Numbered from the stretch's first letter, positions 9,659 to 64,000 are shown. The stretch: DNA of 64,000 bases from an uncultured bacterium (GCA_965541615.1 CBEUCJ010000005.1:110251-174250); one strand, 5' to 3'. Numbers and translations are program-made. The notes: generated by a model from the sequence alone, not told the origin.

Positions 9659-9661
9659 AAT

Positions 9662-9994: not shown

Positions 9995-10004
9995 ATAAAA
10001 AAAT

Positions 10005-20285: not shown

Positions 20286-20299
20286 TTTCCCCCTCCTTT

Positions 20300-21544
20300 T
20301 TAAAAATCAGCTACTATTTCTAAAGTTAAACCATCTCCTTTTAAATCAGGTCCTTTTAATTCATCCTGCCATCTGTATCCTAAACGAACCATAAAATGCT
20401 CCCAAGGAGAAAAGTTTAAACCTACTTCAAATGCTTGTCTTTTTCCATAGTGTTCATATTGACTTACGCTATCTGGACAATCTATGTTAGGGTCAAACCA
20501 TTGGTATCTAAATACAGGTTGTAAAAAGTTAATGCCAAATTGTTTTTCAATAATTTTATAACCTCCTACAATATAAAAAGCTCTTTGTTTAACTGTTCCT
20601 CCTGGCCAGATACCACTGAGACCAAGATCTGCATCAGCAGGTGCCTCAAATTTTAACTGAGCAAAACCAATCATTCCATCAAACTTTCCTCTACTAAAAA
20701 AGATTTCAGAAGTTAAATAATTAAAATCTCTATTGTCTTCTGCATCATATTTTCCTTGCATTCCTTCTACTCTTAATAAAAGTCCTTTAAAAGGTGAAAA
20801 ACCTATTCTCCAAGTAACAGGTTTATTATCATTATTATCATAAGACTGACGATTATGAGCATTAAACATTTCATATACATAACCATTTGAATTCATCGTA
20901 GCATAGCCTTTTGTTGTATAATCTCCTGGACCATTCGATACCATTAATCCATATTCTAAAAAAGCTTCTTTTTCTCCAATAGGTATTCTTCCTGTAACGC
21001 AAATTCCTGTATCCCACCAACCAGTAAATCTTAAAAACTTTTCATATACATATGGTTGCCAGGTCATAAAACGATATTTTGAAGTAGGATAATATACTAA
21101 TTCTTGTGAACCTAAAAGTACAAATTGCCTTCCCATAGATAAAATAAATTTGGATGATGGATGCCAAACTACACGACCTGCTCCTACTTTAAACTTACCT
21201 TTTAATCCTTTATACATCTCAAACTCACCTTCAATAAAAACCTGAGGATTCAATTCACTGATTATATCTACATAGAAACTATGTGGTAGAAAAGTGTTTT
21301 GTCCTGGAGCATAAGAAGAAGAACCTGTATTAGCATAATTTCCCTGGACATGGTCTTGTGCATTCCAGTATTGAGAACTTAAGAATCCATGGATTTCAGG
21401 TAATGAAGCTTCAAACCCATAAGGTAAACCTTTCTGAGCAAAAAGAATATCTCTTCCTTTGAGTTCTTCTTTACTTTCTTGACAAAATCCAACTAAAGAA
21501 AAGATTAAAATTCCAACTAAAAATACTCCTACTCTTTTACTCAT
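20300..21544 (-). CDS. putative outer-membrane beta-barrel (porin-like) protein
   Basis: Signal peptide; alternating amphipathic beta-strand pattern rich in Gly/Tyr; C-terminal residue Phe (LTLEIVADF), typical of OMPs. Confidence 0.45.
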   Translation of the reverse strand: MSKRVGVFLVGILIFSLVGFCQESKEELKGRDILFAQKGLPYGFEASLPEIHGFLSSQYWNAQDHVQGNYANTGSSSYAPGQNTFLPHSFYVDIISELNPQVFIEGEFEMYKGLKGKFKVGAGRVVWHPSSKFILSMGRQFVLLGSQELVYYPTSKYRFMTWQPYVYEKFLRFTGWWDTGICVTGRIPIGEKEAFLEYGLMVSNGPGDYTTKGYATMNSNGYVYEMFNAHNRQSYDNNDNKPVTWRIGFSPFKGLLLRVEGMQGKYDAEDNRDFNYLTSEIFFSRGKFDGMIGFAQLKFEAPADADLGLSGIWPGGTVKQRAFYIVGGYKIIEKQFGINFLQPVFRYQWFDPNIDCPDSVSQYEHYGKRQAFEVGLNFSPWEHFMVRLGYRWQDELKGPDLKGDGLTLEIVADF

Positions 21545-21954
21545 TACTCACCCCCTTCTTTTAAATCCTCTACATATTTAATAGCCTTTGCTTTTAAAAC
21601 GACTTTACCAAATAATCTATTAATTTTTCTTTTTGGAAGACTCCACACTAACTCACTTTCTGCATAATGACCTATTTTGGCTTCTTCTAATTTTTTGCCT
21701 CCTTTTTCAAATTCTAAATCCATTAAAGCATCTGCTCCTATTTGAGAAGCTTTTCTCTTTAAAAGTTTTAAAAAATCTTCTTTACTCATCCATTCATTAC
21801 CTTCTACTTGAATTACACCTAACACTTTATAGGGTTTATTAGGAGGAGAAGTTAGTATTTTAACTTCAGGACTTTCTTGTAGATGAGGAAAATAAGTTAC
21901 TTTAGGCACACAGCCTATCATTAAAAATATTATACAAATTTTTAAAACTTTCAT
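21544..21954 (-). CDS. small lipoprotein (lipobox LMIGC)
   Basis: MKVLKICIIFLMIGCVPK signal/lipobox. Start codon ~18 nt downstream of a perfect promoter, with no SD sequence. Confidence 0.5.
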   Translation of the reverse strand: MKVLKICIIFLMIGCVPKVTYFPHLQESPEVKILTSPPNKPYKVLGVIQVEGNEWMSKEDFLKLLKRKASQIGADALMDLEFEKGGKKLEEAKIGHYAESELVWSLPKRKINRLFGKVVLKAKAIKYVEDLKEGGE

Positions 21955-23727: not shown

Positions 23728-26700
23728 TTAGCTGAGGCAAGCTTTAAATTTTAAACAGAAAAGTTCACCTAACTTTTCTACTTCATAACCTTTTTCTCTT
23801 AATGCTTTTAAAAAGAGTTCAAGGTTATATTTATATCTTTCACATAGTTCTTCTAAAATTTTAATTATCTCTTTATACCTTTTTTCTATCTTTATAACCG
23901 TTGGGAAAAATTCTAAATCTATTTTGCCTTCTTCCCATCTGTAAATCGTGCATAAATTTGAAGGTAAATATATTTCTTTAAGTTGCAAAACTCCTCTGTA
24001 AATTTCATAAATACCAAAGATTAAGTCTTCTTCGGTAGGTAATGTATTTCCTTCTATTAGTATTCCTTTCTCTTTGAATACAAAAGTTAAGCTTTTCAGC
24101 TTCTTATAAATCTCAAATGGTGGAAAATGCAAAGATACATTGAATATCCTTCCAAAATCAAACTTTATATCTTTTTTATACCTTAACTCCTCAAAACTAC
24201 ATTCAATAAATTCTAAATTTTCAACTCCATAAAATCTTTTTGCAATCTCATAAGGATTAATAAGAATTTTTATTTCTTTGTTTAGTAAGATCTTCTCAGG
24301 CTCTGTCTTATCTATTATTTTAAAAAGACTTATATCTTTTAAACGCAACTTTCTATTAATCTCATTTATTAAATTAATTACTTGTTGGTAATCTAGTTCA
24401 TAAGGTGGCTTTAGTAAATTTCCTTTAAAAATTTGTTGCTCCCTTAATTCTTCTAATAAAAAAATCTCTTTCTTCTGATTAAAAACAAGCCAAAATACTC
24501 TCCAATTCTTTTCATATCTTATAGCTATCTGAGGTATAATTAAATCTATGCCATAAACTTGGAGTTGTGGGAATCTTTTTGCTAACTCTAAAGTGGTAGC
24601 AGGTACCAATAAATCATTTTCTTCATCTACACAACAACCTACCCCAATATCTACAAATGTGCCTTTAATATCTTTCCCATAATGAGCTTCAAACCAATCA
24701 TCGGCTGCTTTCAGTCTTTGAGGATAAGTAGTTAAAGGAACTGAACAGTTTTGAGGATTCAATTTGCAATTGAAAAGAATTATAGCTCCATTAAGCATGT
24801 ATAAAAGTCTTGCATAAAATAATAACTGTTCATCAAGACTTGAAAAAGTAAATTTTTGTGATTTGGGATCATATTCTACTATATGACCCCATTTATCACT
24901 TTTTATCTTAAACTCCTCAACAAATCTTGCTTGAGAAACATATTTATCAATAGAACTCATAATATATTGAATATCAACATTGCTGAAACCTTCGTTTTTT
25001 AAAAGCTTTATTACCTCTTCTGAATTTATTTTTTCAGCTGAAAAACCAGGCAGATTGGTGGCATACACACCTTTACTCGTTTTAAACATCTCTACCTTAA
25101 TTTTTAATCCTTCTTTTTTACTAAAATAATTTATAACTGAGCTTAAAAATAACAATGTTCCACCATATACAAAGATATCTATGATTCTAACTTTATTGTA
25201 ACCAGTAATTTTCTCTTTAATCTCTAACCATACTTTAAAAGCTATCTCTTTAAAACTTTTGTCCTCTTTCATTCTCAATTCAAATTCATTATTGAGCTCT
25301 TTGAAGAATCTTTCTACATTTACTTTATAGCTACCTAATCTATGTTTTTCTATACGACTCTTTAAATAACTTTTGAAAATCATATCTTCCATTTTTTTAT
25401 AAACTGATTCTTCAAACTGCTTTTTTAGAGAATTAGAAATTTCTTTTTCTTCTTCATTAGTTAAACCTATAAATTCTAAAGGGACTCCCATTTTTATTCT
25501 ACTTAAATAAAAATAAGTCTCATTTTCTGAACCTACATTTATCCCTAATAATCTAAGTATCTTTTTAGAGAGCAAATAAAACATACCATCACGCATAATA
25601 TAAATCTCTAAAGCTCTGTCTTGAGGTAACTGCCAAACTACATATGGTAATAATCCATTACATAAAACAAATACTAAACACATACTTTTGGTTTGAAAAA
25701 ACCTTTTTTGCACTATATTTTTTAATCTTTCTTTCTCAAAGTATAATTTTTTGAATTCTGGACTTTTTTTATCTAAATCTTCAGAAAGTTTCTTAAATCT
25801 TTTTTCTATTAAAGATACTATTTGATAAGTTGTAAGAGGTATCTTATTTTCAATAGCTTTTTTAACTTCAGGTTCTTTTAAAAATTCTTCAAATACTTCT
25901 AAGTATTTTTCATAAGCCCAATCTTCATCTTTTTTTAGTGGACTAGAAGAAAAAACATTATTCTTTATTAGAATAGAATTTATCCTCTTCACAATTTGTT
26001 CTACACGTTGCTTACTAATTCCAAATCTTTCTCCAATCTTTTGTAAAGTAAATTCTCTATATCTCTTTTTGAATTCTCTAAACTCTTCATAAGGAATCTT
26101 ATATTTACAGAAGGCAGTTTCAAAATCGAGTTTAGAAATTGGATGCTGGAGAAAGAATTTTCTTTTTAACCATAGTTTATAGATTTCTTTATGTCTCTCA
26201 TTTATCTTCAGACCATTTTCTTTTAACTTCTCTTCAAAAATCCTTACTGCTTCTTTGAAATCTTCTTCTATTTCTCTCTCTATTTCTTTTAAGTTAACAT
26301 TTATTCTTTCTCTATCTCTTTTTTCTCTTTCTTTAAGCAAGTTAAATAATACTCTATTTGGATTTAACTGTAATTGAAGGTCTTCTATACTTAATTCTAT
26401 CTTTTCTTTTCTTTCTTTCTCTTTTAAGTACTCTCTTATTGCTCTTTCTATAATCAGAGTAGCATATGGAGAAAACTTTATGCCTCTTTTGGGATCAAAA
26501 CTTTCTATTGCTAAAATCAAACCATGCCGGAATTTTCCAGTCCCTTTATAAGGACATCCAAAGGTCCCTATATTAATTAATTCTGGTAGTTCTTCTGGAG
26601 GTCTTTTAAATCTTTTCTTAATTACCCATTTAACTAAGGGAATATTTAAAATTATTAAAGCAATTAAAGCAGCTTTATTACCTTTGTGTAATTCCTCAAT

Positions 26701-29700
26701 AAGCTTATTTAATTCTTCTTCTTTAAGCTTTCTGTTTCCTACTACTCTTATCTGACTTCTTTGAAAATCTATTAAGTCAGGAATAATTTCTTTTATTCTT
26801 TTCCAATCACAAAAGGTATAAATTATTTCTTTTCTTTTTTTTCTTTCTAATGGTTTTATACCTGCAGCTTTTAAAGCATTATGCCAAGAACCAAAAAAGA
26901 AATAAGCATAATGAGGAACATCTCTATATCCAGCTTTCTGCCATGATACACTATTTCTTGGATCTTTAACTTCTGGAGGTGGATTTTTTAACCATTCAAT
27001 AATTTTTTCTTTTGTCCATTTTTTAACAGGAGAAGATGTTTTTTTCTCTCTAAAAATAGATACTATATCTTTACAAGAAACCTCGATCTTTCTTTCTATC
27101 TCTTGCCACAGATTTTGGGAAAGCAAATCTTTTCCTTTTTCTTTAATCGAATCAAAATTTTTCTTTATATAATTAAATCTTAATAAAAACTTTTTAATAA
27201 ACCAATCTCTGGCTTTATCTTCTAAAGAAGGATTAAATTCTCTTAAAACATTTATAAATTTTTCTAACATAAATTTTTGTTCATTAAAATCTGGTTCTTT
27301 AATAGTAAAACTACTTACAAAATCTATGTTAAATATTTTGAGAGGATTAAATTCTATTCTTAAATTTGAAGGAGATCTATCAGCTATTCCTATTAGATAA
27401 GCACCTAAAGAAGCTTCTGCTAAAGAAAAAGAAAGCTCTTTGATAAATAGTTCATCTTTAAAATAAAAAGTATAGTATTTGTAAAATTCTTCAAGATCCA
27501 TTTTGCCTACATATTCAAGGATAAAATAATCATCTTCCTCTTCAAAAGAAGGCACATAAAAACCTAAAATTTTTAAAGCTTGCATGCCTTGCTTTGCCCG
27601 GCAGTAAGGCATTTCTTTTATCACAACTCTTTTTTTACCGTGTAAAGTTTTTAATTCTATTCCTACTGTCAAACTCTCATTTTCTTTCTTTAATATACCT
27701 TTGAAAAATAAAATCTTTACATGAGAAGTGGAGTATTTTTTCAATAAAATTTCTTTAATATCTTTTAAAAGATCTTTAAAATTAAGACTTGAAGAAGCTG
27801 AGATTTTATTTAATATCTCTTCTAATGTGTAAAAAGGACAGAAGCTAAATTCTTCAATATTGTATCCATTCATTTTCAATATCTTGTATTCTCCTTCTAT
27901 CTGTTGAGCGTAAGAAGTAATTATTATTTTTTGAGAAGGCAAAATAAAAATGCCTGCTGTGTCTATTTTTGTATTTGGAGGTTCATCTATTTTTATATTT
28001 TCTTTTTTTATTCCTTGCAAGATTAAATAATCTTGAAGTCTCCTAACAAACTCTCTTTTTTCTCTTACTTTACCTACCATTAATACCTTTGTATCCTCAC
28101 TAAAAATTTCTTCATCAAAAAATATGTAATCTCTCCATTCTTCTTTTAAATTTTCTATCTGAGCTTGAGGTTTAATATGAGAAAAAAAGATCTTTTTATT
28201 TTTGAGAAAAACTATACAGATGCACTCAGTAAAGATATCTTTGAAAGGAACTTCTATCTTAAGAAAACTTGATTCATGGAAACAGATAAAATCTGAATTA
28301 GAAAATTCATAAAAATTTATTTTTCTTAATTTTTGAAGAATACTCACTAAAACTTTTTCTTTTGATTTCAATATTTTTGAATAGAGATTTTCTAAAGAAT
28401 TTATGTTAGGTATCTCTTCTTCAAAGAAATAATCATCTAATCTAATTAAAATCCCTCTCTTTTTTTCAGGAAGTCTTAAAAAGATATCTTCTTTTTCAAT
28501 CTTACCTGTAAATACAATTTTTTCTTTCTTTATCTCATAGACTGGACCAAAAGCTTCTAAAGTTAGATGAAATCTATTAGAAATTCTCTTTATCTTTTCT
28601 TCTAAATCTTTAAGTTGTGAGAAAATCTCAACACCATACTTTGCTGTAAGAGTTATTGCTATATCGATATCTGAATGAGATTTCCATTCTCCTTTTGCAA
28701 AGCTTCCAGTAATATAGTAATTTTTAATAATTCTTTCTTTTTGATAAGAATTTAAAAGATTGAGTAACTCTACAAATTTAAAAGAGATTCTTTTTAATGG
28801 AGAAGAACTAAAATGAGATGAATTTTTTACATAAAAAGATTTTACCACAAATACAGGATAACATATCTCTTTATATAAAATCTGTTCATAATATTCTTTA
28901 TACAAAATATCTCCAAAATTCCTTACAAAATTATCCAAATCTTTATCTTCATCAGAATCTTTTTTAGTGCTAAATCCTGTGATTATAAAATACTCAGTCT
29001 GGAAAAATCTTTTCATTGCAAATTCTACAGTCTCTTTGAATTGAGTTTTAGAAATGTTTATTAAAATAATATGAGGTCTTATACTTAAAGAGAGTTTTTT
29101 AAAATCTTCATTTATAAATTCTATATTTTTTACATTATTCTTAAATGCTACTTTTTTAGAAAGTTCTACAAGCTCTTTATTTATCTCTACACCATAAACT
29201 TTTTTAGCTCCTAACTTTGAAGCTATAATACATAAATCTCCTCTACCAGAACCTATATCCAAAATGATCTTTCCTTTAAAAATATTCTTAAATTTAAGCA
29301 TAACTTTGATGATAGCTATAGTAGAAGGATGTAGATACCAAGCACCTGATTGTAAGTAAGGTAAAAATATTAATCTTTTGGCAGGTTGAGCTGTGGGGGT
29401 AAAGAGTAGCCAGTCAATTACTACTAATTTTTTAGTCTCTCCTTCAAAAAGCTCTTTGTTTTCTATAAAATGAAAGATCTTATTTTTATCTGCAAAAAGC
29501 TCTCCTTTCTTTAAATCTAAAGAGATCTTTTCAAAATCTTCTTTAATTTCTAACTCTATAAACCTTATTCCTCTTTCATTTAAATTCTCTTTTACTATCT
29601 TCTTTTCAGGACCAGAACTTTTAGAGATCAGAATACATTTAACATTTCTCTCTTTTATTTTCTGAAAAGTAAAATCTAAGAATTTCTTTATCTTTTCTTT

Positions 29701-32700
29701 TATCTCTTCATTTAAATTTGAATCTCTCTCTGAAGTGAAATTAAGATGGAGTAAAGCTCCTTCTTTTTCTTCACTATAAAAAACTAAGATTATATCTCCA
29801 TCAGAAAATTTGCTTTCAGTCAAATCTTTAAAACCTCTACCCACACAGAGCATATTAGTTAAACCCGTAATAGAAGGAGAAATAGGTGTGTAAGAATCTA
29901 AACAATACTTTTTAATAGCTGAACTTGCAAAAATTACATCTTTCCAATATTTTTGCAGATAATTTTTATTTCTTAAATTTTCCAGAGTCTTTAAAATCTT
30001 TACAAAGAATTGGTAACTGCTCTTTGAAGTATTTACTTTTTGTTTAGTATTCCATCTTACTAACCAGAAAAGCTTATGGAGGAATGCAAGTGCAATTAAG
30101 TAAGGGAAAGATTCTAATTCTAAATTATTTAAAGGATGTAAAGAAAGATTTTGATAAGTATTTATTAAATTTATAAAGCTATCAAATTCTAATTTCTCAT
30201 CTATCTCATAAAGATCTGTTCTGGTCAAATCATAAGCTCTTATCTCTTCTCTTGCTGTATCAAAATCAAAGACTCCAACTACTTCTTTATTAGAGAATTT
30301 AAGATTAGACAGAGTGTAATCTCCATGGATAATAGATTTAGGTAACTTTAAATAAGTCTTTTGAAATTTCTCTTTTAGTTCTTCTATTACTTTTAATATT
30401 AAAGGATAACTTTTGATTATTAACTCTTTAAAAGGTGAATCTTTTTCTTCTTTTACTCTCTTATAATAATTTTGGAAACGAATTAACCTTTTGTCTCTTC
30501 CTCCTTTAAAATTCATCAAAGGATCACATTCTCTATACGCAGAAGCTCTTAATAAATTGCGAGGAGATAAGAGTGTATAATGGTGTAATTGAGATAGTTT
30601 CCTTAAAGCATCTTTAAATTGTGAGGAATTTAGTTCTTGCAGAGAAAGAGTTCTTCCTTCTATATAAGTATAAAGAAAATAAATATTGTTATTAAATTCT
30701 GTGAAAGGTAAATTATATTTGTTCAAAATTATTTTGGGTAAAGGAAAGTTGGGATCTTTCTTATTAAGAAAACTTATCAAATAGTATTCTAAAATAGCTC
30801 CTTTTTCATCCCAAGGAGATTTTTTAAGCACAAATTTTTTTGTTTCTGTAATGATTAATACTATTCCTGATATATTTGAATCGACGGGCTGAATCTCTTT
30901 TATCTTATCCAATTTATAATAATCTGAAACTCGCTCTGCTTCCTGTAAACTATCAAAATGACAGATTCTGTGTCTGTGAATCTTTTCTTCTCTACTGATA
31001 GATGAACTTGCTCTTTTTGCTAACTGTTTTTGGGTAGAAATCTTTGAAGTTAAATCTATTGAAAGAGGTCTTCCATCTTTATCTAAAATTGGAAATCCAT
31101 CTTTTGTTTGTTTAAATATTATTTTTATAGGTTTACCTTTTCTAACTATAACATCTACAACTGCATTAGAATAACGAGGAGATTGAAATATAACTTTTCC
31201 TCCCAAATATAACTGTCCCCAAGAATTTAAAGTAAAATTACAAATTTTATGGTTAGTTAACTTCTTTAACTCTTGTGGAGTAACTTTTTTGTAAAAATAT
31301 CTTTCTGTTTCTTTTGAATCTAAGTTGTAAATGAGACTGGTATATTCCCATTTATTCTCAACAGGCCAATAAACCTTTGTTATTATTGCTTTCTCTAAAC
31401 TCTCTCCTTTCATTAATAAATGTGCGTAAGTGCTTTTTGTCTTAGTATTTGTAATCCATTTTCTACCAGCAAAATATATGCTTTTATTTTTCAATAGAGG
31501 AACAAACTCTAACCTTAAAAGATCTTGAACAGATCTTAACAATCTCTCTAAATCTGAACAGAATATAGTAGTTAAAAATGAATCTAAAAGTTTGCCTCTG
31601 GCCTCATCATAAGCTAAAATGAGTTGAATGTACCTTTTTGCTGATATTAAATAAAGAGCAGTTGTAATACCTTTATAAACGAATCGAATGTATTCTGTTC
31701 CAGGTTCAGCATCTTTTAATTTTGCAGTTTTTTTACCATTACCTATCTTTACTCTCTTGTCACTGCTAACTCTTTCTATTAAAGCGATCTTATCTTCTGA
31801 TTTTTTTGGGTATGGATTAGCTAAAACATATCCGTATTTTCTAGCAATCTCTTTGACTTTAGATGAATCTAAAGAAGAACTTGAATTTCTTCTTTTAGAT
31901 TCTTTTCTTGCTTGGAAAACTACTCTTTCCATAATTTTTTCATTAAAATCATTATTAAAATCGATAGGACTGCTGGTCTTGTAAGAAGTAGATTTAATTC
32001 TTTCTAAAACTTCTATAGGAAAGCCTTGCGTGCGGATTTTTTTCCATATTTTATTTAACTCTTGGAATATCTCTTCTTCATTAATACTATTTATCTTTAA
32101 TGTCTTGTGTAATTTTCTTATTTGAACTTTCCATTTTTCAGGATTAAATCCTTTTAAGATTAAGAGTGTTCTTTTTACAGCTTTAACCTTTTCATCAGAA
32201 TTAGATGAGTTAATATGTGAGAGACATCTATTCAATAATCCATTGAGTTCAAAAGGATTAATAAAAGAGCCAGAGGAAAAATAGAATGAGATTAGAATCT
32301 TTTCTTTTAAAGGAAATATTAACCATCTTCTTTGGAGATAAAAATCATCTCCTTCTTTTATTACTTTAGCATTTGTATTATATTTTTTGAGATAAAAATT
32401 CAGTGTCTTAATAATTTCTTTTAACACCTTTTTATCAAAGTAACCTAAACCTACTCTTACATCTAAATCTCCAAGTAATTCGTAAGGAACTTTTCTGTCT
32501 CCTAAAGCAAGGATACTTCCAAAGAGTTCTAATTCTATGTTTAAACTGTTCTCTGTTTCTTTGAGAATATCTTTTAGCAGTCTTACATTTAAAAATTTAT
32601 CTTCAAATATAGAAGAACTGGAATTCTTTTTGAGAATCTCTTCTAACACTTTTCTCACAAGGATCTTTATATTTGTTTTTTCCTTTAACTCCTCTTGAGA

Positions 32701-50700: not shown

Positions 50701-53700
50701 GAAAATGAAATGATAATGGCTCCATCCCCTTTTATTTAGTCTCTGCTGAATTCCAAAAGGTTTAGAAGGCATATAGTAAACATCTCTAAGATTGGAGATA
50801 GTTTCAAAAGGATCATCAGTAGCATACCCACAATCTAAAAGAAAAATTCTGCCTTGAGAGTCTACACCATATTGGGTTATAAAACTATCATGAACATAGA
50901 TTCCCCTTCTTAAAATAGCTCTATCTAACTCAATTTTCTTCTCAAGAAGTTTTTCTATCTTTTGCCAATCTTTTTCATTGAAAGCTAAAATTAAAGCTTC
51001 ATCTAAAGGAAGAGTTTTAATCTGCACAATAACATTTTCCCATTTCTTCATTTCTCCTTTAATCTTAATATATAAACTCAAATTCATAATAAAATCTGCT
51101 ACTAAACCACTTAATTTTTCTTTTGCCTTTTGATAACCTCTCAAAGTAAATTGCTGAAACTCATCTTTAGGAATCTTTATAACAAAATTTAAATCTTTTC
51201 TTTTCAAAACAATTGTCTGCCCTGAGTAAATCAAATCTTCCTCTGTGAAGTTGTATTTCTGTATTTTTTCTTGTATTTCTACTGAATTCAAAGAAGAGGA
51301 GGCTGATTGAATTCTGGAATCTTTATTTTCATCTTTCTTAAAAACTATTCTTTCATTTTTTCTTGGAAAAAGAATGAAAGAACCGGTCATTGCTAAAGTT
51401 AAAAGCACTTTTTTACCAATAGGAGGACCAATAATAATTAAAAATACAGGAGCTAATCCATTCCATAATCCATGTGCAAGAATAGGACATTTTAGAGATT
51501 TAGTCTTTACATACAAAGAAGCATAGATAATACCTGGAAAGAATTGGTAAACAGGGATACAATAACCTTTTGAAATATGAGACAATGCAAAGACAATTGA
51601 AGAAATAAATATACTCTTTTTTACACCAATATTTAATTTGTTTATAAGCAAACGTCTAAATATCCATTTTCTAAATATTATTTCTTCTATTATAGGCGCG
51701 AGCACTGTATCTTGAAGTAAAATTACTCCTATAACCAAAATAGGATTTTTAATGATCTCAAACAATAAGAGTCCATACAAGAATAGATGAATGTTATAAA
51801 GGGTAATAACAACTGCTAATTCTTTTAGAAAAGAATTTTTATTCAAGTTATCTATAGCACTGCTTGAAGTCAAAGAAAGAGATTTCTTTTCTTTTCGCCA
51901 CCAGTCTTCAGTAATTTGTTGAAAACCAATTTTTTCAAAAAATTCCTCCCTGCCACGTACAACCTTTGCCCATAGAGGAATTTTGCCAATTTTATCGGTT
52001 AATTTTTCAATTAAAAGTTTAGCTATTCCTTTTCTCTGATAAGAAGAATCTACTTCTATTAAAGCAATTATAAATCCTTCTTCTTCAAAACTCTTTTCTT
52101 TAAATAATCCGATTTCTCCTATTTTAAAAATGTCTTTTTTATACCCTAAAAGGAGACCTACTACTTCTTTTTCTATCTTTGCTACAAGAAAAGTAATCTC
52201 TTTATCTTTTGCATTACAAAATTCCATTTCCCATACTAACCTTCTAAAATAACGCTTTTTCTTAAACCATTCTTCAAATACTTTATTTATTTCATTAATA
52301 TCTTTTATCTGGATAATCTCTATATTCATTGATGAGGAAGAAACAAGATCAGCAAACTCTTTATTGAGTCGACTAATAAACCAATCTTTACTTTCTACAG
52401 GATACCCTTTATTTAGAAGTTGTTTAGCTAACTGAAAACATTCTTTACTGATACCTAATGAACTTGAACCAAATTCTGGGCTCTTGTAAGGTTGTCTATA
52501 AGGAGGTGTTGTAGAAGGAATAAATGGTTTAAATTCAATATTGCAAGAAGGATTTAACAATTCTTCAGCAGATGGGAAAAATGGTCTGTTTGATGGTAAA
52601 ATAGCTCCAGATAATACTTGCCATAATACAGAACGTATATCAGGCATTTTGTGTTGAGTGTAAAATAAGGCTTTAAGAGCATTTTCATAGCCAAAGAATA
52701 CTCTATCAAAAAGTTCCTTAAAATAATCTCTCTCTTTTGAAGGTAAAGATCTAAATATTTCTAAAATACTTTTAATAGTTTGCTGTTTGTAAAATTTTAT
52801 CTCACTAAATATCTCAGAATAATACATTTTGATTTTGTCTTCGGCTATTTTCATCATAAAGGGCACCAATACATGGAGAGTTATCTTTTTTGTATCAACA
52901 TATTGAGAAAGGAATATAAAAGGCTTAATTATTTCGTAGAGTTTATCTCCAGAAAAAGCACAGTCATCGATTACCAAAATATCTTGAATTCTTTTCTTTT
53001 TAATTTTTTCAACGAGTTGATTATCAACAAAATATGGCTGTATTTCTCTAATATTTACAATAAAAGCATTTTCAGGAAGTAATTCTTTTTCTACAAGCAA
53101 ATCTCTTATCCAAATATCACTTTTCTTATTTTCAGGAGTGCTTTCTTGAAGAATGAGATAAGATCTATCTCTTATTTCATCTTTAAATCCTTCTCCAGCT
53201 AACTGTAAGTTTAATTCAAATTCAAATTGATCAACATATCTAATATTTTTAACAAGGAACTCAGCTAATTCTTTAGGAAATCTCTTAGGCTGAAGAGATA
53301 TCCATTCTTTAGCTTTTTCTTCATCTATATAAGCATCTTCAAAAGGACGAGGAATGATATTTTCTGGAGATATTTTTCTTTTATTATTAAGATAAGTCAT
53401 AATAATAGCTGATTTACTTTTCTCAGAAAGCTTTTTATTTCTTTCTATTTCTTTAATTGCTTTTAAAATTTCTTGAATTCTTGATAATTCAATGGGAGAA
53501 GCAGCTTCTACTCTATTTCTTCCTTTATTTTTTGCAGTGTACAGAGCTTCATCTGCTTTCTTAATCATTTCTTCTATCTGATCAATAGAGTTAACTTTGC
53601 GTGTAGTTAGTCCTATACTTATTGTGATCTTAATAGAACCTTTTGAAGTCTTAAATTCTTTTTCTTCTACACTCTTTCTTAATCTTTCTGCTACTTTCAA

Positions 53701-56700
53701 AGCAGATTTCTTAGAAGAGAATGGAAGAATTAATATAAACTCTTCTCCTCCCCATCTACATTTCAAGTCTTCTTTTCTGCATATTTTTCTTATAATCTCT
53801 GCTAACTCTCTTAAAATTTGATCTCCTATTTCATGTCCATAAGTATCGTTGATTTCTTTAAAATGATCTATATCTATTACTAATACAGAAATTGATGCCT
53901 CTAAAAGTTCTCTATCTTTTTTCCATTTTTTAATTACTTCTTTAAATCCCCATCTATTTAATAAACCTGTTAATTCATCACTGTAAGCAAATCTTAAAGT
54001 GACTTTAGGAATTTCTAACATTTCTTTTATAAACCTTCCAAGGACAAAGATCTCTTCTAATATTGAAGAATAAAATTCAAATTTTTCTTCACACTCTTTT
54101 ATCTTATGGAAAGGTGTGAGGAGAATTACATCTGCATAAATGCGAGAAGAATGAATAATCCAGAAAAGTAAAGACTTTACCTTTTCTTTGTCTCCATTTG
54201 CATATTCTACAGCGTCTTTTTCCCAATTAGAAAAGTTTACTTGAGTAGAATAATTTTGAACAAGCTTTCCTCTATCTCTAATAAGTAGTAATATTTCCTT
54301 TTCTTTTGATATCCATTCTATTCCAAAGCTCTCTTTTTCTTTATTATTTAATTCTATTATCTTATGCAAAATACCTTTATTAAGGTATTCGTATAATCTG
54401 GAAGCAAAATAATCTTTTTCTATACACTTTGCTTTTTGAGGTTCATCTTCATAAGTAGACTTCCTTAAAGTAGCTATTCTTGCTAGAGTCTTCCATTTTA
54501 AAGTAGGAATATACAATCTGTAATAATAGCCACTTAAACCTAATATTTCTTTAAAAAGAGAAAGTATAAATTCACAATATTTTCTTTCAAACTCTTCTTC
54601 AAAAGCTCCTCTTACTTCTTCTCTAAACTCTTTAAGTTTTTTAGAAAGGAGAAGTATTATTTGTTGAGTTTCTTTATTTAAAGAAGAGCTGGTTGCAAGA
54701 AGGTTGCGTATGCTCTTTTCTAAAAGCAAATTCAAATCAGATGCAGTTTGAAAAGAGGACTCATTTTTAAATTTTTGAGGAGGAGCATTTTGAGTATATC
54801 CTTTAATTAATTGCAAGAATCTATAAAAACTCTTTCTCAAAGAAATTTTTTGGAAAATTGAACTACTTGCTTCTCCTATAATTGAAGAGAGGCGATCACT
54901 TATTAATTTAATGTCAACTTCTCTGGATGAATTAAGAAAAGGAATTAAATTCAAATCTATTTTTTTACTATTTACATTTAAAGAGATGCTTATTCCTTTC
55001 TTATTCATTTCAAATAAAATAGGCTGCCAATTTCTCTTAAAGAATTCTTTTAAGACTGAGGTTTTTCTCTTATTTATAATCTCTTCTGCATATCCTCTAT
55101 TCCTCAATTGAGTAATTTCTTCTGTAATCTTTTCTAAAATTTTTTCTTCCAAAGTTAAAAGGATTTTTTCAAAAACATTAAACTCCCAGATCCCTGCAGA
55201 AATTAAAATAAGCTCAAACTTCTTTAAATCTGATTTTTGAAATGCACTTAAAGTATCTTTTACAGTGTTCTTTAAACAACAGCTAAAGGCTCCTCCTAAA
55301 ATGTATACTTTTTGGATATTATAGAAAAATTCATATTCTCCCCATTGGCTGTTTATTTCTAAGATTTCAATTTCTAACTCTTTTAAAGGTAATGATGAAA
55401 ACATAGAGTTTGTTAAAACTATTAAAGGTGAATTTCTGTGTTCTAAAATAATCTTTCTATAGATTTCTTTATGTGCTTCAATAGGATGGGTCAAAACAAT
55501 AACTTTTTCTGCTAAAAGTTGTTTCTTTACCCTTTCTGCTATTGGACTACTAGAAAGAGTCATCTTTTTTGTATTAACATGGGATGAATTTCCCAGAGAG
55601 CTACTTGAAGAAAGAAATTCAAAGCTTTCAAATGTTCCTATAAATATACTTTTTTCATTTTGATTCCATTCCTCATAATTTTTGTAACAAAGCTCTTTTT
55701 CTTTTTCGTCTCTCATCTTTAAAGCTATCTTTTCTAATTCTTCTAACTTATTTCTTATTCCTCTTTCTTCTATCAGTTTCTTAGCTGTTTCCAAAACCTT
55801 AAAATCACCTGCTAAGTGCATACTCGTAAGGATAATATTTTTAGCTGTTCTTAAATCTTCGTAAGAATCCTTATTAAATTTTGCTATTTCTTGAATACTT
55901 ACTTTCTCAAAGTCTACTTCTGTTCTTTCTTCTTCAGGCAAAATATCTTCAGCAAAGGCTATTGTTTTCTCTATAGATAATAATGCATTTGGAGAGACTT
56001 TTTCTTTATCATAAATTTTTTCTTTATCATAAATCATAATTATATCTATATCTGAACCATACATTCTTTCTCTAGTCAAAGGATTAAATCTAATTTCATT
56101 GTGAGCCATACCTATAGATAAATCTCCTGTTAATAATAAACAAACGCCCTCTAAAGGAAGGAAAGTATAAGAGAGAATATCTTTTGCTAACATTCTCTTT
56201 TTAATATTTACAAATTCTCTTTCTTTTCTTAATTTATCTGTAATTATTCTCATTCTCTCATCATTCTTCAATCCCACTACGGAATAGGTATGAAACTCTC
56301 TAAGAATACTTGGAGAAATTTGAGGAATAATTTTTCCTTCCTCATCTCTTTCTATTCTTAAATATCTTTTTCCTTCAAAAACTATCTCAATCTCTGAGCA
56401 TTTTTTACATATCTGCCATACTCTTACAGCACCAGCTATAGTTTTTACATCTAATTTTTCAAACAATTGCTTTCCTAAAAGAGGTTGTTTAGATAAAATT
56501 TGTTTAATTAACTTTTCTGAAATAGGAGAAGACCTTTTTTCTAAAATGGGACTAGAACTCTTTTTCTTTAAGAGCCAAATTCCTTCTCCATAATATTCAT
56601 TGAGTTTATTTAATAGAGAAGTTAAAGGAGAGATTATAATTAGAAATTCTTTATCTCTGTATCTTCTTGTTTGTCCAATAGTAAAATCAACAGCAATTCC

Positions 56701-59700
56701 TGTTTTTTCTATAAGAAAGAATAAGAAATGATGTTCTTCAAAATAAGTTTGGTCAATATCTCTAAAACTGCCTATTATTATCTGAGGATCAAATTCCTTT
56801 AACTTTTCTGCCAGCCATAATGTAACGATTTCACATTTTCCTTCAACATCACCTTTTGTAAATAGATTTACCTCATTAACTAACTCTAATATTTTCTTTA
56901 AGAGTTTCTGGTGTTCAGCAGAACTCTTTCTGATTGCTTCTTCCAAATCCTTTCTATCAGAAATTATTAAAGAAGAAGAGGAAATTGTGAGTTTGTAGAT
57001 AAAAATCTCATTATTTGAAAATGAGAGAATGTAATCTAATCCTCTTTGTTTTATCAATCTCTCTATTCCAAAATTTTCCAAAGAACCAACTAAAGCAAGA
57101 TAAAAAATTCCATTTACATTAAGATAAAAAGGTAAAATTTCAATTAATTTTCTAAGATGCTGAGTTAACTCTTCTTTAGAGAGTTCTGATACTCCTTGAC
57201 GTGAGATAATTCCAAAATCTGTTTCTAACCCTGGTGCATAATGAATAATCACATCATATTTTTTGTTTTTGATTTGAGGAGTTTTAAAGAAATCTCCCCA
57301 AACAATAATGGCATTCTTTACATCTCTTAATGTGAGTAGAGTATTTAAATAAGCAGAAAGTTTGTAATCTATAGCTGTAATCTGGGTGTAACCTTTGGTA
57401 GCTAAAGCATATCCAATAATTCCAGTCCCTGAACCTAAATCTAAAATTTTGATATCTTTTGTTTTGAATCGTTTTATATCCTTTAAGACGAACTCTATTA
57501 ATTTTCTTGTAGCAAAACTATGAGGAGGAAATACACCTTCTATATAAGGAATAAACAATTGAGTTTTTCCTATTTCTACTTTTTCTAAAGAAATTTTAAT
57601 AGGTGTGTATTTTGAAAAATATAAACTTAAAGGTAAATCAAATTTCTTTGATAATAATTCTCGCCAGTCAATAAAGTAAATTCTTCCTATGCCTAAGTCT
57701 GAATATACAATTATTCCTAAGATTATTTCTTTATCAGCAGCAAAAACACTTACTTTCTTTGTTCTTATTCTGTTAATATCTATTGCGACTATATCTTCAA
57801 GAAACTTTATGTTCTTAGAGAAGAGCTCATATAGAGATTTGCTTTCTTTTTCTAATCTATCTAAAGAAATAGAACTAGAAGAAAATTTAGCAAGAAAGAT
57901 TTGTCTGTATTTTTTAAATTCTTCATATAAATCTTTTTTTGTTCTCTCTTTAATTTCTTCTATATCAATTTTTTCTTTATCAGAAACTACCTCAAGAAAT
58001 TCTTTCATCCAGGGATACTCAAAATATTTCTTTTCTGCTTTCTGAAGGATCATATTATACAATTCTTCAGCCTCTTTAAATCTTTTCTCTCCCAATAAAT
58101 AAATAACTTTCCAGCTTAAAGCTTGCAACTCTTCCTCTTTCATATTACATTCCCTACCAGTTTCAATACATCTATTAATATTTTCCTCTGCCTTAAAATA
58201 ATTACCTTCCAAAAATCTAAAAATACTTGCTTTAAAAAGAAGTCTTAATTCTTTTTTTCTTTCCTTTATTTCTTTATTAATTAAACTGCCTTCTTCCAGC
58301 AGTTTAGCTGCTCTTTTAAAATCTTCCAAAAGAAAATAAATATCTGCCTTCCATTTTTTGCATTTAGCTTTGATTTCTGCCCATTCTTTCTCTCCATAGA
58401 TTTTTCTTTTATAAAGCATTAAACCATCTTTTTCTATCCTCTTTAAGTTCTCAAAAAGAATACTTACTTTTTCTTTTCTTTTTTGGGATAATAAATAATC
58501 AACAAAATTCCAATGAGCAGAGGTTCTTCTTTTTATAGCTTTTTCAAATTCTTCTAACTCCTCTTCCAGTTGGGCGCTCTTAAGAGAGTAATGACCTGCT
58601 TCATAAAATTTTTTATTCCTAAAATATTCTAAAGCTTTTCCATAAAACTCTGAAGCTAAGGATTTCATTACTTTTTTCTTTTCCTCTTTATATTTCTCAA
58701 CTTCTTCTTTTCCAGAAACTTTCGCCTTTCTTATTCCCTTCTCACAAACAGAGATAATCTTTGAAAAGGTAGAAATAATCCCTTCTTTATCTTTCAGTTT
58801 ATGATAAATATGCGTAATCTCAAAAAGTCCTGCAATTGCTCCTTTTATATTTCCTCTCTCTAAATCTAAATTCACAGCTTTCTGGAGATATTCTAAAGCT
58901 TCTCTAAATCTTCCTAATCTCTCATAAACTAAACCTATAAAAGTATAATCTTTAGCTATCCTTTCTTTATTTTCTAATTTTTTATGGATCTCCAATATCT
59001 TAAATTGAAGTTCTAAATATTTCTCCCAATCTTTCTCACGATAAGACATTGCCTTAAAAGTGTAAAGTTTTACTACCATCTCTAACAAATCTTTTCTTTC
59101 CTTTTTACTTTTTAGTCTTTCAACCCACTCTTTACATAATCTATCTACTTTTTCATACTCTTCCTTTTCCATTAAAATCTGAATTTTTCTCTTAATATTC
59201 CTTATATTCTCTTTTTTACTTAAAGGACTGCTGGAATAAGAAAAGCAATTCAGGATTTGATTCTTCCAGAATTCAGGATTCTTTCTATTGAGATTAATTT
59301 GAATTACTGGGCTGGAAGTTGTTTGTAAATATAATTCTTCTAAAAATTTCTTTACTGCTTTTATTGCTTCATCCTCAACGTCTTTAATAAGCCTAAAATT
59401 GGATTTTCTGCCTTCTAATCCTCTAAGCATATCTTTTATATTAGTAGCAAAGTCCATACCTACAGGACCATTTTGTGCAGTAACAGCTACAGCCCTAAAT
59501 TCTTTATCATCCCAAATTAAGTACGGGGAACCTGAATCTCCAGGAATAGAATGAGCTCCTACTAATACAACATTGCCTTCTTTTAAAGGTAACAAAAAGC
59601 CACTAGATACAATCTCATTACAACCACTCACTAAAACAGCTAACTCACTTTCACTAAACTTAAGCTTTATTTTAATTGGTAAAAGCTTTCTATCTTGCAC

Positions 59701-62700
59701 TTCTTCTTTTCTGAGAACGAGTATAGCTAAGTCTCCTCTATCAGGAGATGAGAGATGATGGTGCAAAAGTACTTTAGCTACACCTATCTTTTCTGAAAGG
59801 TGAGTATTAGTTTGAAGTAAAACATTTTTAACACCATAAACTACATGGGTACAGGTTAAAAGTATATACCAATCTCCAACTTCACCAGCTACAAAAGCAC
59901 TACCTCTCTTTTCAATCGTTAAAATACTCCTTGAAAATCCTCCATTTTGCTTTTCTTGTTTAGCCTGCATTTCTAATTTTTTGCATTCATTTTTGCATCG
60001 AGATAGTTTCTCTTCTAAATTAATCCTTACTTGAGTGAACTCAGCAGGATTATTAGTCTGGTATAAGATTTGTTTAAGGATAAAGATTATAGTATCAGGG
60101 TCTACTCCTGCTTTTTCGAGTATTTTGGAAAGACGAATAATCTCTTGAAATGTCTGTATATTTATACATCTCAAAACATTATTTAGCTTTTTAAGATACT
60201 TTTCTAAACTATTAACTATTTTTCTTAAATATGATGCAAACTCAAGCTCAATAATCCTAATAGGAGAACTACTCAGCATCTTACTAAAAGTTTCTAAGTA
60301 TCTTTCAAGATGTTTAGTTACAAGAAATTCTTTTCTTACCCTCTCTTGTGCTTCTTTTCCTATTTTTCTGGCTAACTCATTATCTTTAAAAAGTTGTAAG
60401 ATTTTAAATTTTGCTTCTTCTTTATTTTCTACTAAAAATCCACTTCTTCCATTTTCTATCTGAACTTTTATTCCTCCACAGTTTGTAGCTACAACTGGCT
60501 TTTTCTTCCACATAGCTTCAGTAACTACCAATCCGAACCCTTCTTTTTGTGCTAAATGCACCACCAAATAAGCTGCTCTCTGTAAAGCATTTACCTCTAA
60601 AGCATTTTCTTTTCCTTCACTTTTTAAGCGAAGAAGGTGAATATCTTCTTTAAATTCATATTCTTCTCTTAAAGATTTGAACATCTCAAAAATAAATAAT
60701 CCTTCAGCATCATCACGAGGGAAATTACTTGCCAACACCAGTTGACAATCTATATCCTTTCTAATCTCCTCAAATATTTTCATTGCAACTTCTTGACCTT
60801 TAAAAGGATCAAAACGAGAGACTTGAAGAATTATGGGTTTGTAAGGATTAATTTGATACTTTTCTAATACTCTTCTAATTAATTTTTGAGGAATCTCTTT
60901 ATTTTTGGGACTTAAAGGATTAATACTTGCAGGTATAATTACTATTTTCTCATTAGGCAAATCTTTTTGGACAAATTCTTCTGTATGAAAGACTACTTTA
61001 TCTGCTAAACTGACAAACTCATAGATAAATTTCCACACTTCTTTGTTAGGAGAAGATAAATCTATATGGCATCTCCAGATGATTTTAATATGAGGATACT
61101 TTTCTCTTATCAAAGGAATAATCCCTGCTGTCTGAGGATCATGGCAGATTACAATATCTAAATCTTTAAAAGCTCCTTTTTTCTCCAAGTTTTTAAATTC
61201 CCTCTGAGATATAATCTTATAGAATTCCTTCTCATCTTCACCAAGCTCTACTCTGTTTCCTTGTAGACCATTGTGAAGCTTCTTTTTAGTGAAATTAAAA
61301 AATTCACTGCTTCCTTCAAATACTTCCCAACTTGCTTTTATACCGACTTTGCCAAAAAGAGGAACAAGATTACCTAAAAGTTCAGCTACCCCTCCTCCTT
61401 CTTTGGTAGTATTTATGTGTAAGACTCTTAAACCTTTTAAATTTTTATATTTTTCTTTTAATCTTTGAATCTGCTTTTCTATATACAACCACTCATATAC
61501 ATTTCTTAAAGACACAAATACATCTTTTTTATCCAATTTATCTAATAGTCTTATTATTGAAGATGAAGAAACTTTTTTTGCTAAAGTAGTAGTTTTATTT
61601 ACATTTGAGTAATAATCTTTATCTAATTCAATTTTAAAAATTTCTAAAGCTATCAGATATTTTATTAATTCTTGAGGATACAATTTAAAATATTTGATGC
61701 TTTTAGATTGAGCTTCTTCTTCATTTAATCCTTTAATAAGGTGGGAAATTTCATGGAGAATAACATCATTAATGAGGGTTTGGAAGATTTGAGATTTTTC
61801 TGATTCCGGAGGTGGTGCTCTTGAAGCTAAACTTTCTAAAATCGCTATTTTTTGAGGTACAGTTACTATATCTGCCAATTTACCAGTTTTAGTCTTATCA
61901 ACTAAAATTACTAATTTTTTGGGAGCAATTGCTAGGTTAAACTTTTCAAAACTATTCTTTAAGTAATAATTGTAAAAGATTTTTTTCTGTTTGGAAGCAG
62001 GTTTTTGGTAAGGTTCTTTTAACCTTGCTGGATACTCAAATTGCACATGTTTTAATTCTTTTTCTAAATCCTTTTTCTTTCCAAAGCAAGCTATAACTTC
62101 TTCAGTTAAAAACCAAGCCAAAATCCAGAACTTTATTAATGAAGGTTTTAGTGCTTTTGTTCCTTTAATCTGCAAATCTATAAATTCTTCACTTCCTGCT
62201 TCCTCAGCTGTTCCTGGCAAGAAGAATGCCAAATCTACATCTAATTCTGGGTTTTCTAAAGCAGTTATAACCACAATTTTTGCCTTTGCTTTTTTAGCAG
62301 TCTCTATTAATTTTTTGATTCTCATCTTGCGAGAAGAAACACCAATAATTATTACTAAATCACCTTTTTCTATTCTTGCCTGAACATGTCTTGCACCTGC
62401 AACAGTTGCGATAATTCCTAACTGCTTAAGACGAGTCATAAAAGATAAAGCTACTTGATGGGACACTCCATCACCCAAAATATAAACTTTAGAAAAAGAT
62501 GTAGGCTTAAAAAGAAGTTTAAATCTCTTAAAAATAGGAGGATTTCCAATCTTTTTTAACATCTTGTAGAACTTTTCTATTTTTTCTTTTGTTACTTCCT
62601 TTCTAAATTCTTCACTTCCTGTGATTTGTATGGCTTCTAAATGGGTTAATATATAATTCTTTAATGTTTTAAATACCTCTTCTTCAGTTTTACATTCATT

Positions 62701-64000: not shown

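Follow-up and report, generated by a model that had tools for sequence, protein, structure and literature searches.

The DNA analysed here, which we call the window, is a 64,000-nucleotide (nt) stretch from an uncultured bacterium (GCA_965541615.1, CBEUCJ010000005.1:110251-174250). Its minus strand carries a giant open reading frame (ORF) that is still open at the window edge (64000), so the N-terminus lies beyond the window. The giant ORF encodes at least 32 consecutive modules, most of which match free-standing proteins in size, and is punctuated by short runs of serine. We are highly confident that this is a real multi-enzyme giant gene of the Omnitrophota that is built of punctuated modules. 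We further propose, with a probability of about 45%, that this gene is translated as a polyprotein that would be cut at the punctuating motifs. The features of the ORF are given in Table 1.

Table 1. Features of the giant ORF; positions are those of the window and residues (aa) are numbered along the open frame
Feature	Position	Strand	Residues	Basis or remark
Giant ORF	23728..63999	-		at least 13,423 codons plus stop at 23728-23730
Module 1, HPS-like	63298..63999	-	1-234	Pfam OMPdecase/HUMPS E 6e-16; PDB 9lj9 HPS E 1.5e-38
Module 2, PHI-like, two SIS domains	61570..63285	-	239-810	Pfam SIS; NCBIfam RuMP_HxlB E 3e-26
Module 3, complete TreT trehalose synthase	60274..61557	-	815-1242 (428 aa)	between SSSS and SSS
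Module 4, S1/trypsin-like, core ~aa 1366-1535	59236..60264	-	1246-1588	Pfam Trypsin, Trypsin_2
Module 12, N-terminal region, GGDEF and PRTase-CE	52468..54681	-	3107-3844	Pfam, NCBIfam, motifs
Module 14, GNAT acetyltransferase	51868..52329	-	154 aa	Pfam
Module 15, CPBP/Rce1-like intramembrane protease	51301..51858	-	186 aa	Pfam E 4e-19
M48 zinc metalloprotease core (HEIAH ... EFEAD), end of module 16	47779..48225	-		Pfam E 1e-11
Second TreT	43858..45144	-	6286-6714	38% identity to first TreT
Module 21, M50-like membrane metalloprotease, then P-loop-like region	40579..41985	-		Pfam M50B E 3e-3, weak
Module 23, intact LOG (PGGFGTLDE), then degenerate LOG copy	38389..39582	-		Pfam E 3e-39
Degenerate LOG copies	34654-35214, 38389-~38870	-		PADFRTLDI
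1.8-kb direct repeat, copy 1	37042-38865	-	8379-8986	90.6% nt identity between copies
1.8-kb direct repeat, copy 2	33316-35130	-	9624-10228	flanks confirmed by L001
All-beta domain, copy 1	36970..38025	-	8659-9010 (~330 aa)	no Pfam family
All-beta domain, copy 2	33250-34290	-		
All-beta domain, copy 3	31009-31794	-		divergent
Sigma-70-like region after all-beta copy 1	35938-36582	-		
Module 29, APH-type kinase and PrmA-like SAM-methyltransferase	28810..30999	-		Pfam, NCBIfam
Module 30, Pol-beta-type nucleotidyltransferase	27796..28800	-		Pfam
Sigma-70 regions 2 and 4, within module 31	25984..26523	-		Pfam
Ser junctions 1-6	63286-63297, 61558-61569, 60265-60273, 59227-59235, 57871-57882, 56971-56982	-		
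Ser junctions 7-12	56551-56559, 55597-55611, 55546-55554, 54859-54867, 54682-54690, 52459-52467	-		
Ser junctions 13-18	52330-52341, 51859-51867, 51292-51300, 47764-47778, 43840-43857, 43678-43686	-		
Ser junctions 19-24	43000-43008, 41986-41994, 40570-40578, 39583-39594, 38377-38388, 35215-35226	-		
Ser junctions 25-31	34642-34653, 32611-32622, 31873-31884, 31000-31008, 28801-28809, 27787-27795, 25942-25950	-		

There is no TAA, TAG or TGA in the 13,423 codons between 63999 and 23731 on the minus strand, and the remaining five frames across this stretch contain 568-1,575 stops each. As the other frames have about 0.1 stops per codon, an open run of 13,423 codons cannot be due to chance. The original prediction, made from the sequence without database searches, had described a frame that is stop-free to the window edge while the other five are saturated with stops, and both statements hold. 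It had given the length as 13,379 codons; this is the stretch counted from the first TTG, at 63867, and the full open frame has 13,423. Reassignment of a stop codon is irrelevant, as the frame has no stop codon of any kind. The GC content is 29% in the window, 25-32% along the giant ORF and 26-37% in the neighbouring genes, which bears out the earlier remark that the ORF is similar in composition to its neighbours. Rfam and tRNA scans found no Rfam families or tRNAs in the window. There are no sizeable tandem repeats in the window either: TRF reports only four short arrays (79 nt or less).

An independent assembly, the 31 kb JGI metagenome contig Ga0190309_1000087 (3300021498; L001), has the last 4,769 codons of the giant ORF and the same genes downstream of it, and is colinear with the window over 14.3 kb. 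The two versions of the protein are 98.4% identical and differ in length by three small in-frame indel events only. There are 94.5 synonymous and 79.5 non-synonymous differences between them (dS 0.035, dN/dS 0.20). A more distant contig of 3.3 kb, Ga0164318_10069294 (L004), has a counterpart of aa 48-796 with 77% identity (dS 0.50, dN/dS 0.25). The frame is thus under purifying selection; that it is selected had been predicted. L004 was all that a metagenome scan for an upstream extension of the giant ORF returned, and a homologue search with the N-terminal part gave two distant fragments; for the first 8,656 codons the evidence consists of the open frame, the integrity of the domains and L004.

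The original prediction had named in-frame stops or frameshifts in independent sequence as grounds for doubt. There are none in L001, but L004 has a single in-frame TGA at ~1477, where the window codes for Leu (aa ~509, LKQ-L-GII). This codon could be a sequencing error, a sign of a pseudogene or a true gene boundary. Positions 1-190 of L004, upstream of the HPS module, have many stops in this frame (this relative has 77-88% aa identity), and the ORF of the relative may start inside HPS, at about aa 48 of the window.

The TGA in L004, the presence of a 1.8-kb internal repeat with 90.6% identity, which could mislead assemblers, and the fact that related contigs of metagenome-assembled genomes (MAGs) break at or inside the gene would all be expected if the giant ORF were a chimeric assembly, a collapsed repeat or an untranslated relic frame. 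We consider such an artefact very improbable. The absence of stops is confined to one frame, L001 is colinear across the second repeat copy and differs by in-frame indels only, both substitution ratios are low, and the catalytic motifs of the GGDEF (GGEEF), CPBP, M48 and LOG modules are intact. On these comparisons the giant ORF is a real, single, selected reading frame.

The translation was searched as overlapping 1,000-aa chunks and as single modules against Pfam, NCBIfam and PDB. There are well-supported matches to HPS, PHI (two SIS domains), TreT (twice), TPR, GGDEF, PRTase-CE, GNAT, CPBP/Rce1-like and M48, to LOG (three copies, one intact and two degenerate), to four S-adenosylmethionine (SAM)-dependent methyltransferases, to an APH kinase and a Pol-beta nucleotidyltransferase and to sigma-70 regions 2 and 4. 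Weak matches were obtained to an S1/trypsin-like protease (E 8e-4), an M50-like protease (E 3e-3), a PI3/4-kinase-like fold (E 2.6e-3) and an MGS-type GT-A glycosyltransferase (MGS_GT, E 0.056). A second sigma-like module (E 9e-3) is 41% identical to a relative that is named, and annotated in precomputed Pfam matches, as a sigma-70 factor. At least 20 distinct Pfam families tile the chain and none is dominant; the highest copy numbers are those of the methyltransferases (four to five), LOG (three) and TreT (two). Nearly all NCBIfam equivalog scores are below cut-off, which makes the modules divergent members of their families and not orthologues of the named enzymes.

These searches recovered most of the domains listed in the original prediction, namely HPS, PHI/SIS, both copies of TreT, GGDEF, the PRTase-like domain, GNAT, CPBP, M48 and the three copies of LOG. 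Its S1, M50-like and GT-A modules were found as weak matches only, and one of its two sigma-70-like modules is solid (regions 2 and 4) and the other weak. The numbers it had given for nucleotidyltransferases (three), kinase-like folds (four) and methyltransferases (at least six) were not reproduced; the searches gave one nucleotidyltransferase, the APH kinase with the weak PI3/4-kinase-like match, and four methyltransferases.

Several modules are well preserved. The first TreT matches the Pyrococcus horikoshii TreT (PDB 2x6q) with E 8e-104, its residues 21-425 aligning to positions 19-412 of the 416 in the chain, and matches NCBIfam TreT_Thcocales at positions 17-411 of 412. The GGDEF diguanylate cyclase of module 12 (Pfam E ~1e-46 to 2e-46; NCBIfam GGDEF 179 bits, above cut-off) has GGEEF and an RxxD I-site, and is followed by the PRTase-CE domain (Pfam E 2e-7). 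Module 15, the CPBP protease, has several hydrophobic segments and intact EExxxR, FxxxH and HxxxN motifs, and its best NCBIfam matches, all below cut-off, are sorting proteases of the Mrt/myxosortase type (MrtS, MrtJ, PEP-CTERM CAAX-like). HEFAH of the M50-like module 21 sits within hydrophobic segments. The intact LOG of module 23 is above cut-off for NCBIfam TIGR00730 (172 bits). The sigma-70 regions in module 31 have E-values of 1.4e-6 (region 2) and 5.9e-6 (region 4) in the module scan and 4e-6 each in the scan of 1,000-aa chunks.

The earlier claim that the chain carries complete catalytic cores is correct for the many modules with intact motifs, but does not hold for every module. PGGxGTxxE is lost in the two degenerate LOG copies. 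The HPS match lies at aa 57-234 and covers positions 34-205 of the 205 in the NCBIfam HxlA profile (154 bits against a cut-off of 200), so that the first 33 profile positions are unmatched, and the module has DLKTIS instead of DxKxxD. Some modules, such as the two LOG copies and HPS, may be pseudo-enzymes.

Pfam scans of the 13,423 aa gave no condensation, adenylation, carrier or ketosynthase/acyltransferase (KS/AT) domains and no Ig-like, cadherin, RTX or similar repeat arrays. With only the short TRF arrays and one 1.8-kb duplication as repeats, the giant ORF is, as had been stated, neither a repetitive adhesin nor a non-ribosomal peptide synthetase or polyketide synthase. Glycoside hydrolase, lytic transglycosylase, NUDIX and HEAT domains were not found in these scans, and no chunk of the 13,423 aa matched the Pfam SecA_DEAD or SecA preprotein-binding domains. 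A crude Kyte-Doolittle scan gives about 14 candidate hydrophobic segments, clustered in CPBP, the M50-like module and two or three other places. The cofactors of the modules include GTP, SAM, ATP, UDP-sugar (UDP-glucose) and acetyl-CoA. The presence of cofactor-dependent enzymes, together with few hydrophobic segments and the lack of glycoside hydrolases, adhesin repeats and SecA, points to work in the cytoplasm and not to digestion of prey cell walls.

The giant ORF contains 31 Ser runs, three to six residues long, compared with a mean of 3.2 (maximum 11) in shuffled sequences. None of them is inside a Pfam envelope; the original prediction had mentioned them as Ser linkers. The residue after the run is L (13 times), I (nine), P (seven), M or A in all 31 cases, although these five residues make up only 29% of the protein. 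Two-Ser variants (xSS[L/I]) occur 13 times against 10.9 expected; being at background level, they show that two Ser do not suffice and that three Ser, or SSP, are needed. The Ser codons of the runs are a mixture of TCN and AGY in the same proportions as Ser codons elsewhere, which indicates that the motif is kept at the protein level. For this ORF, an origin of the motif in slippage or in a DNA-level recombination site is rejected on account of the same mixture.

The Ser runs split the chain into 32 pieces of the size expected for single proteins, for example GNAT (154 aa), CPBP (186 aa), LOG (187 aa), HPS (234 aa), a methyltransferase (296 aa) and TreT (428 aa). The modules follow one another head-to-tail, and beyond S-S-S-(S)-[L/I/P] there is practically no linker between them. 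HPS reaches the last position of the HxlA profile one residue before SSSS, and the second TreT ends two residues before an SSSSSS junction. Alignments to other proteins respect the same boundaries. More than 15 proteins give alignments that start at aa 8542-8560, directly past the SSSS at 8538-8541, and one alignment of the relative P0131 stops at aa 8537, before this run; alignments to all-beta copy 3 stop at aa 10990-10996, ahead of the SSS at 10998. HPS and PHI are common to L004 and the window and have the same KISSSSLKRDN junction, but the modules that follow them in L004 are different. Taken together, the positions of the runs and of the alignment ends show the Ser motif to be a marker of evolutionary module boundaries.

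Met makes up 0.89% of the giant protein compared with 1.86% of the 20 neighbouring proteins encoded at 644-23654 (initiators excluded), and there is a Met within 10 residues downstream of only two of the 31 junctions. This is consistent with the modules not being made by internal initiation.

The 1.8-kb direct repeat contains a degenerate LOG copy, an SSSS junction and an orphan all-beta domain. The first ~123 codons of the two copies are 99% identical in protein, and the repeat resembles the product of a recent segmental duplication, or of gene conversion, within the gene. The AlphaFold2 (AF2) model of the all-beta domain is confident (pLDDT 87, pTM 0.83) and has no fold match in PDB. Among 1.84 billion representative proteins the domain is confined to 76 clusters, mostly of giant proteins, and it is the element most widely shared among the related giants. 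In the relative P0004 a sigma-70-like region likewise follows an all-beta copy. A search of the genome contigs with the A1 domain profile gave one distant, stand-alone-like locus (L003), in which the all-beta domain lies within a 620-aa ORF (3371-5233). The idea that the all-beta domain is a protease that cuts the junctions was a guess and is not supported.

The distant homologues of the giant ORF are multi-kiloresidue multi-enzyme proteins; P0003 and P0126 are labelled at source as Candidatus Omnitrophica and the rest are metagenome proteins with no organism label. With L001 and L004, they answer the earlier suggestion to look for orthologous giant ORFs. In the related giants with a motif, the most over-represented short word is junction-like and has a spacing of ~40-1,300 aa. 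In P0003 this word is SSS (21 observed, 2.9 expected), and in P0149 and P0146 it is SSSP (22 observed against 0.16 expected, and 18 against 0.12); P0149 has 38 SS(S)P sites in all. SSPA occurs six times in P0004 (0.07 expected) and SSPV five times in P0126 (0.045 expected). Other relatives have words that do not contain a Ser run: GARLA in P0005 (16 observed, 0.03 expected; 20 GARL sites), ARMA in P0178 (five, 0.017 expected; GARMA four, 0.001 expected) and SFRRH in P0133 (four, 0.001 expected).

P0005 is a complete multi-enzyme ORF of 4,971 aa (10001-27079 of L006, a 233-kb contig of JGI 3300001199 with a GC content of 53%) that is punctuated 20 times by [S/A/T]GARL[A/S]. The motif is mostly encoded by GGC GCG CGG CTG GCG, with AGG/AGA/CGA and TTA/TTG as variants. 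These synonymous CGN/AGR and CTN/TTR variants suggest that GARLA, too, is kept at the protein level. Directly downstream of this ORF there is a gene of 688 aa with a weak match to a Reprolysin-like metalloprotease.

Four modules of the window ORF resemble proteases. In module 4, LTCTH, GDLAIL and GDSGSP are arranged and spaced like the catalytic His, Asp and Ser of trypsin-fold proteases. The SSPV-type relative P0126 has two homologous copies of this module (38% identity) in which all three motifs are invariant. The S1-like module 4 is the first candidate for a processing protease. CPBP, M48 and the M50-like module are further processing-type proteases in the chain. CPBP and M48 are well supported, yet are membrane or processing proteases of other specificity, and the CPBP module may process C-terminal sorting signals and not Ser junctions.

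The reading that we favour is that the giant gene is translated as a polyprotein precursor and that the Ser motif would be where a protease embedded in the chain recognises and cuts it, probably inside the run of Ser; the S1-like module is the first candidate for the cutter. From a single transcript, cutting would yield cytoplasmic enzymes, sigma-like factors and small membrane proteases at a fixed 1:1 ratio. A wider form of this proposal, in which Omnitrophota giants are cellular polyproteins with a lineage-specific cleavage motif and a protease that co-evolves with it, for example the conserved S1-like module, is put forward tentatively and with more doubt.

Several observations weigh against cleavage at the motifs. 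Neighbouring ordinary genes have five SSS runs in 6,879 aa, so that the enrichment over the local background is only about 3-fold and it is the positional pattern and the residue following the run (P1') that carry the argument. There is no obvious recurring motif in about half of the related long proteins, and the rule is therefore not universal. The codon consensus of GARLA in P0005 leaves room for shared DNA ancestry or for a role at the nucleic-acid level. Module 4 is below the Pfam cut-offs (Trypsin 19.7 against 20.6 bits; Trypsin_2 20.6 against 27.6 bits; E 8e-4 each), has no PDB match by phmmer, and its single-sequence AF2 model (pLDDT 36) is unusable. Serine proteases dislike Pro at P1', and relatives of the SSSP type have Pro in that position; cutting immediately before Leu would leave termini that resemble N-degrons of the bacterial N-end rule. 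The studies of giant proteins consulted report no experimental cleavage. Finally, the N-terminus, where published giants have signal peptides, C39 peptidases or SecA, lies outside the window.

The chain might also stay in one piece, as a mega-enzyme or scaffold that is tethered to the inner membrane through its few membrane modules and in which the Ser runs serve as minimal hydrophilic linkers. Ser-rich linkers are common in fusion proteins. Peptides of the Velamenicoccus archaeovorus giant protein have been detected, with no fragments reported in the sources consulted, and hydrophobic clusters in the window ORF are restricted to CPBP, the M50-like module and a few other segments, which fits the view of Nielsen & Lui (bioRxiv 10.64898/2026.06.07.730766) that giants with transmembrane (TM) helices only are membrane-anchored with cytoplasmic domains. 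However, passive linkers normally vary in length and composition, whereas those of the window ORF are short and fixed and have a hydrophobic residue or Pro next in 31 of 31 cases. Other lineages have unrelated fixed motifs (GARLA, SFRRH), and GARLA is neither flexible nor hydrophilic. We also infer that sigma-like modules and small intramembrane proteases would be hard to accommodate inside a 1.5-MDa chain. An uncut scaffold is the main rival, though somewhat less likely than the polyprotein.

The genes downstream of the giant ORF are, in order, a TPR protein, a radical-SAM protein, three unannotated genes, a chemotaxis cluster (methyl-accepting chemotaxis proteins (MCPs), CheW, CheC, CheA, CheR, CheD, CheB), an STT3-type oligosaccharyltransferase and a GT2 glycosyltransferase. 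This gene order is syntenic in L001 and in another locus, L005. The CheA of the window is matched at 99% on L001 and at 77% in the NCBI MAG GCA_053996315.1, where the gene order is syntenic. The next matches to CheA are 50-63% identical, and among the best 120 matches listed all those with an organism name are Candidatus Omnitrophica/Omnitrophota; they include MAGs named 4484_70.1 and 4484_171, which we take to be Guaymas Basin MAGs. Judged by the matches of its neighbouring genes, the host of the giant ORF is an Omnitrophota bacterium.

Some of the neighbouring genes (all on the minus strand) differ between the related loci. A Cache/HAMP MCP (550 aa) and a protein with four rhodanese domains (565 aa), encoded at 13797-17246, are in neither L001 nor L005; by this comparison the pair is a strain-level insertion or deletion within the chemotaxis cluster. 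The three successive genes near the giant gene (19710-21954; 191, 414 and 136 aa) have no Pfam match. All or some of them adjoin the giant gene in L001 and L005 as well. The 191- and 136-aa genes have counterparts of similar size in both L001 and L005 (131 aa in L005), and the 414-aa gene is kept in L001, while L005 has genes of 270 and 151 aa in its place. At 2766-5282 and 644-2775, adjoining the chemotaxis cluster, there is the STT3/PglB-type oligosaccharyltransferase (838 aa), which by synteny with L005 is followed by GT2 and a B12-binding radical-SAM gene. This arrangement suggests an N-glycosylation locus in this Omnitrophota genome.

An episymbiotic or predatory way of life has been inferred for the Omnitrophota, and the literature connects their giant proteins with host contact. 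The giant ORF might be an effector polyprotein that, as in MARTX toxins, is exported to a host or prey, is processed in the target cell and acts through its modules on host physiology. PRTase-CE, SLOG/LOG, nucleotidyltransferase, GNAT, methyltransferase and kinase modules are present along with a weak GT4-conflict match, and families such as these are frequent in conflict systems. MARTX toxins are a precedent in that they are large bacterial proteins with several unrelated enzyme domains, which are freed by an internal protease at short inter-domain sites. In contrast with these toxins, the searches of the 13,423 aa within the window (the N-terminus being outside it) revealed neither a secretion signal nor RTX repeats, and no SecA, C39 or adhesin domains. 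The MARTX cysteine protease domain is also missing, and the window ORF is 3-4 times longer, with about 30 modules against about three to five. None of the genes adjoining the giant ORF (TPR, radical SAM, chemotaxis and STT3 genes) is a secretion gene. HPS, PHI and TreT resemble enzymes of housekeeping or compatible-solute metabolism. Delivery of the modules to another cell is thus quite unlikely.

A parallel to the polyprotein reading is found in viruses. Viral polyproteins, such as those cut by picornavirus 3C or flavivirus NS3, have an embedded chymotrypsin-like protease. Like these, the giant ORF is a single ORF with units of the size of mature proteins, a short boundary motif and a trypsin-fold protease (here predicted) inside the chain. 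The window ORF differs in being a cellular gene for ordinary metabolic and signalling enzymes, with no sequence relation to the viral proteases, and cleavage is known for the viruses and proposed from sequence here. A parallel to modules 1 and 2 is the natural HPS-PHI fusion of Thermococcales (PDB 9lj9; NCBIfam RuMP_HxlAB), which has the two domains in the same order. In the window SSSS separates HPS from PHI, they are the first two of at least 32 modules, and they score below the equivalog cut-off, the start of the HPS profile being unmatched.

The original prediction stated that no family with this architecture had been described. This is not correct, because Omnitrophota giants with glycosyltransferase, methyltransferase, peptidase, GNAT, GGDEF and sugar-phosphate domains are known. 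ORFs of more than 20 kb occur in most Omnitrophota classes (Seymour et al. 2023, PMC10066038), and West-Roberts et al. (2023, bioRxiv 10.1101/2023.11.21.568195) reported Omnitrophota proteins of up to 85,804 aa. Among the latter are the 'Archaeovorins', which are rich in glycosyltransferases, methyltransferases, peptidases, NUDIX, HEAT/TPR and sugar-phosphate enzymes and have as type sequence a protein of 39,678 aa from V. archaeovorus; the same authors suspected cleavage and stated that the cleavage points were unknown. Nielsen & Lui (2026, bioRxiv 10.64898/2026.06.07.730766) catalogued 916 proteins of at least 10 kaa, 94% of them with TM helices and/or a signal peptide. Their class 1 consists of 'multi-enzyme metabolic clusters', and the text is silent on linkers, cleavage and polyproteins.

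The giant ORF belongs to this described class of Omnitrophota giant multi-enzyme proteins. It shares with class 1 of Nielsen & Lui the phylum, a length of more than 10,000 aa, the tiling of one chain by many Pfam families without a dominant one, and an overlap with their modules 1 and 2 (methyltransferase, GNAT, GT1, sugar-phosphate enzymes, TPR, peptidases). It differs in an apparently lower TM density, with ~14 segments by our crude scan against their mean of 22 per protein of at least 10 kaa, and in having a junction motif, whereas that paper gives neither a junction motif nor a cleavage model. With the Archaeovorins it has in common glycosyltransferases (GT1/TreT), methyltransferases, peptidases, TPR and GGDEF-type domains in an Omnitrophota giant ORF, and post-translational cleavage is suspected for both. 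In contrast with them, it lacks SecA_DEAD, HEAT, NUDIX, glycoside hydrolase and lytic transglycosylase domains in the 13,423 aa, the 40 kb in view fall short of their threshold (more than 90 kb), and its modules do not support the part in cell-wall degradation that was proposed for them. The Archaeovorins have an N-terminal C39 or S8 peptidase near a signal peptide; the corresponding region of the giant ORF lies outside the window. As far as these two studies and a full-text literature search on giant proteins of the Omnitrophota reveal, the punctuation motif and the conserved S1-like module have not been described before.

Giant ORFs are a hallmark of the Omnitrophota, and whether each of them makes one protein or many is a long-standing question that the junction rule makes directly testable. 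The Ser-run rule is also a principled way to cut giant proteins into units for structure prediction and annotation. If the polyprotein reading is correct, each lineage would have its own cleavage motif (SSS-[L/I/P] here; SSSP, SSPA/V, GAR[L/M]A and SFRRH elsewhere), and these motifs would supply the cleavage points that West-Roberts et al. called unknown. A single ORF of more than 40 kb would replace about 30 separately regulated genes, and the motifs would allow modules to be exchanged between genomes. At such a scale, no earlier bacterial counterpart to the polyprotein strategy of RNA viruses would be known. For this member of the family, the content of compatible-solute and ribulose monophosphate (RuMP) enzymes, cyclic di-GMP, LOG, methyltransferase, kinase and sigma-like modules argues against the prevailing view that such proteins serve to degrade the cell walls of prey.

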